DNA of 64,000 nucleotides from Candidatus Moranbacteria bacterium UBA2282 (GCA_002345745.1 DDWQ01000014.1:4439-68438); one strand, 5' to 3'; numbered from the stretch's first letter, positions 8,574 to 58,165 are shown. Made by a program: numbers and translations. The notes: generated by a model from the letters alone, not told the origin.

Positions 8574-8647
8574 TCCGCGATAGCTCAATGGTAGAGCAGT
8601 TGACTGTTAATCAATTGGTTCCAGGTTCGAATCCTGGTCGCGGAGCC
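8574..8647 (+). tRNA. tRNA-Asn (anticodon GTT)
   Basis: Acceptor TCCGCGA/TCGCGGA. Anticodon loop CTGTTAA. T-arm CCAGGTTCGAATCCTGG. Ends GCC with no encoded CCA. Confidence 0.8.
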
Positions 8648-55228: not shown

Positions 55229-58165
55229 ATGGAAAATTACAATCCCAAGGAAATTGAGGTAAAATGGCAGAAAAAATGGCTTGAACAAGCCTCAGAAAAA
55301 ATTGACAAGGATGATACTAAGAAAAAATACTATATTTTGGATATGTTTCCATACCCATCTGGAACAGGCTTGCATATGGGGCATACAGAGAGCTATACAG
55401 CTAGCGATGTTTTCTATCGTTTTAAAAAGATGCAAGGTTTTAATGTCTTACATCCACAAGGCTTTGACTCATTTGGTTTGCCGGCGGAAAACTATGCTAT
55501 CAAAACAGGTATTCCTCCAACTGAAACCACTAGAGAAAATATAGATAATTATATTCGCCAGATGAAATCTTTGGGTTTCAACTATGATTTTTCGGAGCAA
55601 GCTGTTACAAGCGATCCAGAATATTACAAATGGACACAATGGATTTTCACAGAGTTCTATAAAAACGGATTAGTATATAAAAAAACTCAAAAAACCAACT
55701 GGTGTTCTTCTTGTCAAACGGTTATTGCTAATGAACAAGTAGTTGAAAATAAATGTGAACGATGCGGAACGGAAATTGAGCAAAAAGAAGTTCCAACGTG
55801 GTTTTTCAAAATCACAGATTTCGCTGAAGAATTGATTGCCGACTTGGATAATGTTGATTGGCCGGAACATACTAAAAAAAATCAACGAAATTGGATTGGG
55901 AAAAGTGAAGGAGCAAGCGTAAAATTCCAAATTGAGGTCAAAGGCTCTAAGAGCCCAATTGGGCTCTTAGAGCCTAACGTTGTCGAGGTATTTACTACGA
56001 GAGTAGATACTATATTTGGTGTAACATATTTAGTTGTTGCTCCAGAGCATGAAATAATTTCAAATTTAAAATCTAAAATCTCAAATTTTGATAAGGTTTC
56101 CGAGTATATTGAAAAATCAAAAAACAAAACTGAGTTGGATAGAATGGAAGCCAAGGAAAAAACAGGTGTAGAATTGGAAGGCATCAAAGCGGTCAATCCA
56201 TTTAATGGTGAGGAAGCGCCGGTTTTTGTGGCTGACTATGTCTTGGGAAATTATGGCACCGGCGCCGTGATGGCTGTGCCGGCGCATGATGAAAGGGATT
56301 TTGAGTTTGCGAAAAAATATGAATTGCCAGTCAAGCAATCAATCACGCCAAATATTAAAAATTATCAAACAACAATTAAAGTTCTTGATATTTTAAAAAG
56401 TATTAACGAAGTAGCACAAGAAAGAAATGTCAAGATTTGGTTAACTGGAGGATTATCTATTCCATTTTATTCTAGCGTTATTTACAGAGCACATTCAGAT
56501 TTAGACTTAATCGCTAAAGATGAAAATGACTTTAAGATGGCAATTCATATTTTTGAAGATTTAGGTTTTGAAAAAGTAAGAGAGAAAAAACTATCAGAGA
56601 GTCTAACTAATTTTATTTACAAGAAGGATGATATTGAAATTGATATTGGTCCAAATAAATCAGAATTTGATTTAAGGGATGATGATTTTGAGGAAGACTT
56701 AAAGAGTTATTCTAATTTTTCAGCTTTAACCCTAAGTAAACGGTTTATCAGGAGCGTAAAAGAGGTTCAGTTGAAGAATAGAAATGAAGATAAGGACAAA
56801 ATGGATCAGGAATATTTGGATGGTAAAATCTTGACTGACGATGGTGTTTTAGTTAATTCTGCTGAATTTACTAGTTTAACTTCAGAACAAGCGCGGGAAA
56901 AAATGACGGAGTGGTTGGAAGAAAAAGGCTTGGGCAAAAAAGTTGTGAATTATCGCTTACGCGATTGGTCAATTTCACGGCAAAGATATTGGGGTTGTCC
57001 GATTCCAATTGTATATTCACCAGATGGTGAGCCACATTTAGTTTCTGAGCAACATTTACCATGGATTCTGCCCACGGATGTGGATTTTGTGCCCACAGGT
57101 GTTTCACCGTTGGCCAAATCAGAAGAATTGAAAAAAAGAACGGAAGAAATTTTCGGAAAGGGCTGGACTGCAGAATATGACACGATGGACACCTTTGTGG
57201 ATTCGTCTTGGTATTTCTTGAGATATCCGGATGTGCATAATACGGAAGAATTCTGCTGTTCAAAAAGAAAAGAATGGTTGCCAGTGGATATGTACATCGG
57301 AGGTGCTGAACACACCTATATGCATTTGCTGTATGCCAGATTTTTCGTGAAAGCCCTGCATAAAATTGGACATTTGAATTTTTCAGAACCATTTTTAAAA
57401 CTTCGTCATCAAGGTATGGTCTTGGATAAGGATGGCAAGAAAATGTCCAAATCCAAAGGTAATGTGATTAACCCGGATGATATGGTGAAAAGATTCGGCG
57501 CGGACGCAGTTAGGACATATATGCTATTTGTGGCACCACTTGAAGATGCGGTGATGTGGAATGAAGAAAACATAGTGGGCGTGCGAAGATTTTTGGATCG
57601 AGTTTGGAATTTGTATGTGGATTTTTTAAATAATTTTGACAGTCAAAGAAATGTTACACATAGAGAATCCGATATACAATTAGCAAAAACTATAAAAATA
57701 GTAACAGATGATCTAGATAATTTTAAATTTAATACAGCTGTGGCATCGATGATGAAATTTGTTAATTATCTGTATGGGAGAAAAAACAAGGATGGAGAAT
57801 TAGGAGTTGTAAATATAGAAATAGCATTTGCTTTCTTAAAATTATTACATCCATTTGCTCCTCATATGACTTCGGAATTGTTTGTTAAAGTGCAAGAACG
57901 CGACGATAGCTTAAGCGGTAAAAATAATATTTTAAATGAAGACTGGCCAGAACCAAAAAAAGAGCTTTTAATTGATGAAAAAATAAATTTAGTTATTCAG
58001 GTCAACGGTAAAGTGCGCGATATGCTGGAGGTTGATGCAGAAATTACCGAGGATGATGCAAAAAAAGTTGCCATGGAAAGTGAAAAAATAAAAAATCACA
58101 TTAGCGGAAAAGAAATTAAAAAAATTATTTATGTCAAAAATAAACTCGTGAGCATTGTAACTTAA
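55229..58165 (+). CDS. leuS: leucine--tRNA ligase (with ~150-aa lineage-specific insertion after the CP1 editing domain)
   Basis: HMGH (HIGH) motif; ZN1 Cys pairs; AVMAVPAHDERDFEFA; YRLRDWSISRQRYWG; KMSKS; 978 aa. Confidence 0.9.
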   Translation: MENYNPKEIEVKWQKKWLEQASEKIDKDDTKKKYYILDMFPYPSGTGLHMGHTESYTASDVFYRFKKMQGFNVLHPQGFDSFGLPAENYAIKTGIPPTETTRENIDNYIRQMKSLGFNYDFSEQAVTSDPEYYKWTQWIFTEFYKNGLVYKKTQKTNWCSSCQTVIANEQVVENKCERCGTEIEQKEVPTWFFKITDFAEELIADLDNVDWPEHTKKNQRNWIGKSEGASVKFQIEVKGSKSPIGLLEPNVVEVFTTRVDTIFGVTYLVVAPEHEIISNLKSKISNFDKVSEYIEKSKNKTELDRMEAKEKTGVELEGIKAVNPFNGEEAPVFVADYVLGNYGTGAVMAVPAHDERDFEFAKKYELPVKQSITPNIKNYQTTIKVLDILKSINEVAQERNVKIWLTGGLSIPFYSSVIYRAHSDLDLIAKDENDFKMAIHIFEDLGFEKVREKKLSESLTNFIYKKDDIEIDIGPNKSEFDLRDDDFEEDLKSYSNFSALTLSKRFIRSVKEVQLKNRNEDKDKMDQEYLDGKILTDDGVLVNSAEFTSLTSEQAREKMTEWLEEKGLGKKVVNYRLRDWSISRQRYWGCPIPIVYSPDGEPHLVSEQHLPWILPTDVDFVPTGVSPLAKSEELKKRTEEIFGKGWTAEYDTMDTFVDSSWYFLRYPDVHNTEEFCCSKRKEWLPVDMYIGGAEHTYMHLLYARFFVKALHKIGHLNFSEPFLKLRHQGMVLDKDGKKMSKSKGNVINPDDMVKRFGADAVRTYMLFVAPLEDAVMWNEENIVGVRRFLDRVWNLYVDFLNNFDSQRNVTHRESDIQLAKTIKIVTDDLDNFKFNTAVASMMKFVNYLYGRKNKDGELGVVNIEIAFAFLKLLHPFAPHMTSELFVKVQERDDSLSGKNNILNEDWPEPKKELLIDEKINLVIQVNGKVRDMLEVDAEITEDDAKKVAMESEKIKNHISGKEIKKIIYVKNKLVSIVT

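Follow-up and report, generated by a model that had tools for sequence, protein, structure and literature searches.

The 64,000-nucleotide stretch of Candidatus Moranbacteria bacterium UBA2282 (GCA_002345745.1 DDWQ01000014.1:4439-68438; hereafter, the window) carries a leuS gene for leucyl-tRNA synthetase (LeuRS) in which a nucleotidyltransferase (NTase) domain is embedded. The protein is a LeuRS of bacterial type, aligning pairwise with that of Thermus thermophilus at E = 4.6e-204 and matching the Pfam domains tRNA-synt_1, tRNA-synt_1_2 (PF13603, the LeuRS editing domain) and Anticodon_1. The host enzyme retains its own catalytic and editing motifs: HMGH, KMSKS, the T-rich motif and the GTG…AHDERD segment are all in place, the editing motifs of the CP1 domain are invariant in a 56-sequence LeuS alignment, and both editing aspartates, D354 and D357, are present, the latter corresponding to T. 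thermophilus D347.

We delimited the insert by comparison with LeuS proteins with and without it. In the window, 213 residues separate AHDERDFEFA, which ends at residue 361, from YRLRDW, which starts at residue 575. Counted from the phenylalanine of AHDxxDxxF, the interval is 214 residues in the window and 57–88 in most insert-free members of the 120 closest LeuS proteins, a few reaching 106; a second group among the 120 has intervals of ~200–243 residues. These relatives come from metagenome-assembled genomes of Candidatus Moranbacteria/Moraniibacteriota and other Parcubacteria. In T. thermophilus LeuRS the same interval, counted from the alignment, is ~65 residues. In that alignment, query residues 1–372 correspond to T. 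thermophilus 1–362 and query residues 536–733 to 378–579; because it breaks at query 372/536, equivalent to T. thermophilus 362/378, residues ~371–535 stand in place of a 15-residue loop. The insert is ~165 residues long, an excess of ~150–165 over insert-free relatives. The original prediction of an extra block between the two motifs thus holds, with corrected figures: its normal spacing of ~30 residues was too low, and its interval of ~175 residues is actually 213, of which the inserted block takes up ~165. Its placement of the block between the editing domain and the catalytic core has to be given up, since PF13603 matches LeuS in two stretches, the listed one covering residues 220–380, and alignment with T. 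thermophilus picks up again at residue 536 (T. thermophilus 378), still within an editing domain that we take to span T. thermophilus residues 224–417. The C-terminal part of CP1 matches T. thermophilus LeuRS from residue 378 on and is kept in relatives with and without an insert. The insert begins 15 residues after the universally conserved editing aspartate D357 and, as judged from the alignment, replaces T. thermophilus loop 363–377, which we equate with the I4b loop of CP1.

The insert is richer in AT than the remainder of leuS (GC content 28.7% versus 36.6%; GC at third codon positions, GC3, 23% versus 32–33%). We considered two trivial origins and rejected both. A chimeric assembly or frameshifted fusion has a negligible probability, given an uninterrupted reading frame, the identical LeuS protein on four contigs, and dozens of independent assemblies with the architecture; mis-assembly, the refutation that had been foreseen for the extra block, is likewise contradicted, since the domain recurs in 25 of the 120 nearest LeuS proteins as well as in 12 genomes that each represent a species. 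An intein is excluded by the lack of any Hint or intein Pfam match and by the end of the insert (…LDGKI/LTDDG), which has no His-Asn; the site, a variable loop and not a conserved position, also disfavors it. A search of the flanks of the window insert for terminal repeats or target-site duplications gave weak AT-rich matches only. Separately, a 17-nt perfect inverted repeat, AAAAATATGAATTGCCA / TGGCAATTCATATTTTT, has one arm (56313–56329) in the codons just 5′ of the insert and the other (56538–56554) within it; repeats of at least 17 nt arose in 5 of 1000 codon shuffles of the region, and this one may be due to chance.

The fold, the motifs and a Pfam score above threshold place the insert in the Pol-beta-like NTase superfamily and in PF10706 (Aminoglyc_resit, the ANT(2″) family). 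PF10706 scores 25.9 bits against the whole LeuS and 29.7 bits against the insert alone, above its gathering cut-off of 21; the match spans profile positions 2–88 of 149, and the sequence match is therefore to the N-terminal lobe only. PF14907 (NTP_transf_5) is a weaker second Pfam match. In HMMER searches, ANT(2″)-Ia chains were the sole PDB sequence matches, and the alignment runs without a gap across …W(L/I)(T/G)GG-x15-(S/D)D(L/I)DL. We aligned 23 NTase inserts of LeuS relatives, 20–63% identical to that of the window (alignment A1), and with this alignment AlphaFold2 modeled the insert alone at a predicted local distance difference test score (pLDDT) of 93.2 and a predicted TM-score (pTM) of 0.88. 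From the N terminus, the model predicts a helix, then the alpha/beta core of the NTase, a beta-hairpin and finally a pair of helices. In the full-length LeuS, modeled with the 56-sequence alignment (pLDDT 87.6, pTM 0.77), the insert keeps the same secondary structure, and the insert and both linkers score 86–96.

Comparison of the model with the PDB by Foldseek returned several NTases at a probability of 1.00. LnuA was matched at E = 2.7e-6 and ANT(2″)-Ia at query-normalized TM-scores (TMq) of 0.73–0.75 (0.75 to 4xje; root-mean-square deviation 2.4–3.3), followed by TM1012 (TMq 0.66, target-normalized TMt 0.69) and the tRNA-extending toxin MenT1 (TMq 0.64). Remoter matches were terminal uridylyltransferases, Pol mu/lambda and SpoT synthetase domains, and a search of a viral fold library gave generic NTase folds only, such as poly(A) polymerases and LicD. 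The model and these matches together reveal the alpha-beta-alpha-beta-x-beta-beta core of the superfamily. The insert did not fall into any named resistance family of NCBIfam: its top matches, Lnu(D), Lnu(P), Lnu(C) and ANT(2″)-Ia, reach 19–27 bits (Lnu(D), the best, 27.5; ANT(2″)-Ia 19.2) against cut-offs of 300–350. No match to MenT/AbiEii DUF1814 was found with Pfam (E ≤ 1) or PADLOC (E ≤ 0.1), and the neighboring genes, encoding DUF4349 and a sugar-phosphate NTP_transferase, include no antitoxin partner; the PADLOC defense-system models did not match the NTase domain at all. We rejected a class II CCA-adding enzyme or poly(A) polymerase, as there is no PF01743 match, the domain is only ~165 aa long and the fold matches to such enzymes were weak and partial (3wfp, TMq 0.35).

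The residues of the active site are conserved to a degree that matches this assignment. In ANT(2″)-Ia, Asp44, Asp46 and Asp86 bind two Mg2+ ions, Asp86 being the catalytic base, while Arg40 and His42 hold the triphosphate, roles established by structure and mutagenesis (PMC4313920). The peptide VKIWLTGG…HSDLDL… of the insert (residues 401–427, nt 56429–56509) contains both the hG[GS] motif, its two glycines invariant, and the [DE]x[DE] pair that, together with a third carboxylate, mark the superfamily; R420 and H422 align with the Arg40 and His42 typical of PF10706. Across the 23 LeuS inserts, G407, G408, D424, D426, K522 and D523 are invariant and R420, H422, K511 and D526 are kept in 22, while D486, F487 and E488 of the acidic patch are nearly invariant. 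Residue 472, on a predicted strand (469–475, full-length model), is aspartate in 19 and glutamate in four sequences of the printed alignment and is invariant, as D102, in an eight-sequence set. From the order of strands, as distinct from a superposition, D472 appears to be the third carboxylate, equivalent to ANT(2″)-Ia Asp86. The C-terminal domain of ANT(2″)-Ia, a beta-hairpin plus helix (PMC4313920), is comparable to the hairpin (residues 487–502) and helical lobe predicted here. Pfam, predicted structure, fold search and catalytic-residue invariance are four independent lines that bear out the original prediction of a minimal Pol-beta-like NTase fold with a G[GS]…DxD signature. The G-to-D spacing, which had seemed a little long, is the norm for the subfamily, since GG-x15-DxD aligns gap-free with ANT(2″)-Ia. 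We are nearly certain that the insert is a complete small NTase (~160 aa) set in frame in the I4b loop of LeuRS CP1.

Table 1. Features of the window leuS gene and its inserted domain, with two loci used for comparison. Positions are nucleotides of the window unless a locus is named.
Feature	Position	Strand	Basis or remark
leuS coding sequence (978 aa + stop), host gene	55229–58165	+	Single uninterrupted open reading frame
HMGH, LeuS residues 49–52	55373–55384	+	Motif search
CP1 editing domain, N-terminal part, residues ~220–370	55886–56338	+	PF13603, residues 220–380, profile 1–148 of 185
T-rich editing motif TTRVDT, residues 256–261	55994–56011	+	Motif search
GTG (343–345)…AHDERD (352–357)	56255–56299	+	Motif search
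Inserted NTase domain, residues 371–535, replacing the I4b loop of CP1	56339–56833	+	Gap in T. thermophilus alignment, PF10706, AlphaFold2, Foldseek
hGG motif L405 T406 G407 G408, start of NTase helix-turn	56441–56452	+	Aligns to GGW of ANT(2″)-Ia
R420-A-H422-S-D424-L-D426, putative triphosphate-binding Arg/His and two Mg-binding Asp	56486–56506	+	Gap-free against R-K-H-D-D-I-D of ANT(2″)-Ia
E470-I-D472-I-G474, strand with third carboxylate (putative catalytic base, Asp86 equivalent)	56636–56650	+	
Acidic D-D-D-F-E-E patch, candidate acceptor-binding surface	56678–56695	+	Conservation counts
NTase C-terminal helical lobe, helices 504–517 and 521–530, with K511, R518, K522, D523, D526	56738–56818	+	AlphaFold2
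CP1 C-terminal part, residues 536–574: strand DGVLVNS, helix SEQAREKMTEWLEE, running into the YRLRDW linker	56834–56950	+	
KMSKS, LeuS residues 738–742	57440–57454	+	Motif search
LeuS with NUDIX cassette, syntenic example	L017 3501–6371		
P0123, free-standing 160-aa cassette homolog with its own start codon	L016 303–785		44% identity over the entire module

We then compared the content of the I4b loop across the 120 closest LeuS. It holds an NTase in 25, a NUDIX domain in 24–28, another domain in ~11–15 and a short loop only in 56. The NUDIX cassettes match PF00293 at 33–55 bits and, as read from their sequences, keep a complete Gx5Ex7REUxEExGU box. Their best NCBIfam resemblance is to the RNA pyrophosphohydrolase RppH, weakly so (26–30 bits against cut-offs of ~117), a resemblance that is compatible with an RNA-end theme and does not establish one. 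The other inserts are 60–150 residues long. Unclassified ones (P0051, P0021, P0119, P0074, P0100 and others) had no Pfam or NCBIfam match, and comparison by hhalign with the NTase and NUDIX profiles gave probabilities that were all ≤2.4%; they are therefore unrelated or unrecognizable and not evident decayed forms of either. Profile comparison found no relation between the NTase and NUDIX domains themselves. The original prediction had asked whether the domain is shared by the whole lineage or confined to this genome; it is neither, being one of several alternative cassettes at the I4b loop.

Syntenic loci document the replacement directly. The window and a related contig (L017, GCA_030645735.1) share the order ATP synthase beta, ATP synthase epsilon, one non-shared gene, LeuS, NTP_transferase, CofD, a 216-aa protein and Nramp, with neighboring proteins 71–83% identical. 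Over the first ~800 residues the two LeuS proteins are 76–100% identical in most 30-residue blocks, dipping to 55–56% at residues 241–297 and, further on, to 36–44% at 802–921; in the blocks over residues ~388–531 identity falls to 10–27%, where an NTase faces a NUDIX domain of nearly equal length. In a second syntenic pair, P0004 (NTase) and P0036 (no insert) are 89% identical and differ by a single clean in-frame block of 486 nt, whose junction shows at most an ambiguous AGAAAA microhomology. This block follows …DGILxN/S, ~9 residues downstream of the insertion point in the window; the loop has thus taken up this module at two different points.

Furthermore, a neighbor-joining tree of the LeuRS body (insert masked, 760 columns) contains one 13-member clade in which all members carry the NTase, with insert types interleaved elsewhere. 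Identities of body and insert among carriers are uncorrelated (Spearman 0.10). P0039 is 59% identical to the window in the body and 62% in the insert, and P0006, P0008 and P0010 have bodies 74–76% identical to it with NTases only 18–21% identical, which are therefore different NTase subtypes. Similarly, the window insert is 59–61% identical to those of L004–L006, while the 250 body residues after YRLRDW are only 44–45% identical. Even the closest pair of compared loci has an insert identity no higher than 71%. These comparisons show that the I4b loop is an exchange site, occupied at orthologous syntenic loci by this NTase, other NTase subfamilies, NUDIX, unrelated domains or nothing, and that insert and LeuRS body have followed separate histories.

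The module is closely tied to LeuS. In species-representative genomes, all 12 loci encoding it are LeuS-embedded at I4b. A word-index homolog search with the insert alone gave no matches, and an exhaustive HMMER search of 1.84 billion representatives gave 15 at E ≤ 1e-3; the strong long ones are LeuS, and the close matches comprise LeuS and one free-standing gene, P0123. P0123 stands alone and is related over the full module, which means that the cassette is equivalent to an entire small protein. The P0123 stop codon overlaps the next gene's start (ATGAGTAA overlap; translationally coupled; downstream gene at 778–1020). The contig, L016, is a 1-kb metagenomic sequence, and the downstream gene resembles, by reading only, an endonuclease IV/xylose-isomerase-like TIM-barrel protein. 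As to the range of hosts, four of the 12 carrier genomes (L008, L012, L013 and L015) are labeled as lying outside the candidate phyla radiation (CPR), namely as Bathyarchaeia, Lysobacteraceae, Gammaproteobacteria and Woesearchaeota. Their LeuS proteins have the same bacterial/CPR-type architecture, and the labels may reflect binning contamination; the ‘Woesearchaeota’ contig (27% GC, insert 36% identical) may be a real transfer.

The position of the cassette relative to the editing pocket bears on its possible role. In Streptococcus pneumoniae LeuRS, I4b is a long loop between alpha2 and alpha3 of CP1, non-conserved among bacteria, and a ligand bound in the editing pocket is ~4 Å from its Thr373; in eukaryal LeuRS the insertion I4ae lies over the opening of the pocket (PMC3747510). 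The S. pneumoniae numbering coincides with that of T. thermophilus at D344/D347. Because I4b lies at the pocket edge, the NTase would be tethered to the rim of the pocket into which tRNA-Leu directs its 3′-terminal adenosine, a placement derived from this equivalence of residue numbers and not from a measured distance.

A second hotspot for insertions lies in the first beta-hairpin of CP1, equivalent to residues ~233–252 (nt ~55925–55985). Its cargo includes a PD-(D/E)XK domain (PF13366) in P0038, a PF06821-type alpha/beta-hydrolase in P0075 and P0114, an insert very like the latter two, not labeled PF06821, in P0092, and a ~120-aa insert of no identified type in P0130. In some of these carriers I4b is occupied as well, by an NTase or NUDIX domain. 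At the hairpin the window LeuS shows no more than a short extension, modeled with low confidence (pLDDT < 50 at residues 241–247).

Taking these observations together, we favor a model in which an active NTase beside the editing pocket nucleotidylates a hydroxyl presented there, and we put its probability at roughly 0.4. The domain would be an Mg2+- and NTP-dependent transferase in which R420 and H422 hold the triphosphate, D424, D426 and D472 bind two metals, and D472 serves as the base. The two short, confidently modeled linkers would hold it at the rim of the proofreading pocket, where A76 of tRNA-Leu is taken up; an active NTase at that rim suggests, as its acceptor, a hydroxyl group presented at the pocket. 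The preferred acceptor would be the tRNA-Leu 3′ end, in acceptor-end repair or modification, and the main alternative a small molecule bound in the pocket. The parts of this model differ in strength. Going by its conserved motifs, the domain is probably catalytically competent. For functional coupling to the CP1 pocket the odds look about even, because the module is associated near-exclusively with LeuS, NTase subtypes and NUDIX domains converge on the same ~10-residue stretch, and NTases of such size extend tRNA acceptor ends: MenT toxins, of similar size, add nucleotides to tRNA 3′ ends (PMC10435456, PMC7450476). The tRNA-Leu 3′ end as the acceptor is a tentative choice, which we think rather unlikely to be right in this specific form.

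Several points weigh against the model. ANT(2″)-Ia and LnuA, to which the domain is structurally closest, act on small molecules and not RNA, and the inserts are inconsistent in pI and in net charge (−9 to +14), with no uniform RNA-binding signature. A nucleotide added to an intact CCA end would inactivate the tRNA, and a repair role would serve tRNA-Leu alone. The NUDIX domain at the same site in sister lineages shares no obvious acceptor with an NTase. The cassette is dispensable, as 56 of the 120 relatives lack any insert, and the preference for this site could reflect a permissive loop of an essential protein.

The structural matches raise a rival whose probability, though lower, is appreciable: that the domain modifies a small molecule. 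Like ANT(2″)-Ia or Lnu it would O-nucleotidylate its target, which could be an antibiotic-like inhibitor lodged in the editing pocket or a compound resembling lincosamides or aminoglycosides, and by being fused to an essential, constitutive enzyme it would be sure of expression or protect LeuRS on the spot. Antibiotic NTases, namely LnuA and ANT(2″)-Ia (TMq up to 0.75), are indeed the closest in both fold and sequence, and the best NCBIfam matches point the same way; the conserved acidic DFEE patch recalls acidic drug-binding clefts, and I4b borders a pocket that binds benzoxaborole-AMP adducts (PMC3747510). The low NCBIfam scores, however, place the insert outside every known resistance family, and resistance to ribosome-directed drugs gives no reason for the embedding of all 12 loci in LeuS. 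It also counts against such a role that we know of no natural inhibitor of the LeuRS editing pocket. Somewhat less probable is a history in which the cassette is a passenger, I4b being a permissive loop that captures whole small genes, which then spread among LeuS alleles by recombination across strongly conserved flanks; the NTase would do a job of its own apart from LeuRS or be nearly neutral. That the loop hosts mutually unrelated domains (the NTase, the NUDIX and the ‘other’ inserts, by profile comparison), that gain and loss are frequent, that the insert is AT-rich, that a free-standing homolog exists and that a second CP1 loop likewise collects domains all fit such a history. It explains less well why catalytic residues are invariant over carriers as divergent as those of alignment A1, why at least three NTase subtypes, with two insertion points, converge on one ~10-residue stretch, and why the module is so rare outside LeuS, with only those 15 matches in the exhaustive search.

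Of low probability is a non-catalytic role, with the domain as a cap or docking module that shapes or gates the opening of the editing pocket like I4ae, senses nucleotides or recruits a partner. The way I4ae covers the pocket opening offers a precedent (PMC3747510), its equivalence being taken from name and from position after the conserved Asp, and the linkers are modeled as ordered. A mere cap, however, needs no invariant metal-binding Asp, triphosphate Arg/His or K-D pair, and the NUDIX cassettes also keep their complete catalytic box. Returning to the favored model of an active NTase at the pocket, we also entertain a speculative and rather improbable extension, in which the CP1 domain of LeuRS in Parcubacteria would serve as a docking port where interchangeable enzyme cassettes act on the tRNA-Leu acceptor end during its stay in the editing pocket, in on-synthetase tRNA-end repair or counter-defense. 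I4b would carry NTase, NUDIX or other domains and the second loop the alpha/beta-hydrolase or PD-(D/E)XK; such cassettes would re-add a lost 3′ nucleotide, or remove a 3′ pyrophosphate or adduct left by toxins that attack tRNA, for example MenT/AbiEii NTases or toxic small alarmone synthetases (toxSAS), and would be traded between lineages in the fashion of an arms race.

Two tRNA genes in the window bear on 3′-end addition, anecdotally, given their number. In tRNA-Ser GGA (1674–1762) and tRNA-Asn GUU (8574–8647), the discriminator base and CC are encoded and followed by T, not A, so that C74 and C75 are apparently genome-encoded and A76 is not. The related loci, checked for an encoded CCA, contained no tRNA genes.

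Set against known systems, the insert has in common with ANT(2″)-Ia and Lnu(A) the size (~160–177 aa), two lobes, GG-x15-DxD, the Arg/His triphosphate clamp and a third carboxylate; it differs in sequence (17–19% identity), in scoring far below the NCBIfam cut-offs and in being embedded in LeuRS, whereas those enzymes are free-standing. The MenT/AbiEii (DUF1814) toxins are minimal NTases of similar size and fold, and the chemistry of the MenT enzymes is that envisaged in the favored model, but there is no sequence-family match, identity is ~10% and the insert has no antitoxin partner; as part of an essential enzyme it is, moreover, unlikely to be a growth-arresting toxin. TM1012-like uncharacterized NTases (PDB 2ewr, 2fcl) are stand-alone proteins of ~156 aa with the same fold, comparable to P0123; TM1012, however, is 17% identical to the insert and is not inserted in another protein. 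Bacterial I4b and eukaryal-archaeal I4ae occupy the same site as the insert: they follow the conserved editing Asp, lie between alpha2 and alpha3 and sit at the rim or opening of the pocket, in a stretch known to vary among bacteria (PMC3747510). Known I4b is nevertheless a loop and I4ae a helix-containing peptide, neither with a fold or catalytic motifs of its own, whereas the window LeuS holds a complete, swappable enzyme domain.

Domain accretion in aminoacyl-tRNA synthetases is exemplified by the INS editing domain inserted in bacterial prolyl-tRNA synthetase; the extra domains gained by synthetases are in general mostly terminal, mostly eukaryotic and mostly non-catalytic. INS, too, is an autonomous catalytic domain in a synthetase loop whose host stays active; INS-type domains, however, are aminoacyl-ester hydrolases fixed over large clades, whereas the NTase and NUDIX cassettes are patchy and exchangeable among close relatives. 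Peripheral CP1 insertions (I4b, I4ae), domain accretion in synthetases and minimal NTases of the ANT(2″)/Lnu/TM1012 type are thus already known. In the literature on LeuRS and other aminoacyl-tRNA synthetases we found no description of an NTase or NUDIX domain within LeuRS CP1, nor of cassette exchange at I4b; the architecture shows up only in the precomputed Pfam annotation of metagenomic proteins.

The locus presents a bacterial LeuRS that carries, on the rim of its proofreading pocket, a second enzyme, apparently an active one, for which close relatives substitute a NUDIX or another domain. Should the cassettes act on the end of the bound tRNA, they would represent a new coupling of tRNA quality control or repair to a synthetase, and modular, laterally exchanged accessory domains within an essential translation gene of reduced-genome CPR bacteria. 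Even as passengers, they mark I4b as a natural, repeatedly proven permissive site for 160-residue domains, useful in protein engineering. Variation of this loop also matters for editing-site drugs, whose selectivity depends on it.

Around leuS, the order of genes between 52199 and 62160 is ATP synthase beta, ATP synthase epsilon, DUF4349, LeuS, a sugar-phosphate NTP_transferase, a CofD-like protein, the 216-aa protein, which is HAD-like, and an Nramp-like protein; within this neighborhood we found no gene obviously tied to the insert. L017 shares this order, and L002, L003 and L018 share part of it. Lastly, T. thermophilus residues 580–636, which we take to be the leucine-specific domain, are unaligned with the window LeuS, which has no matching counterpart (57425–57445, residues ~733–738) and passes almost straight into KMSKS after residue ~733.

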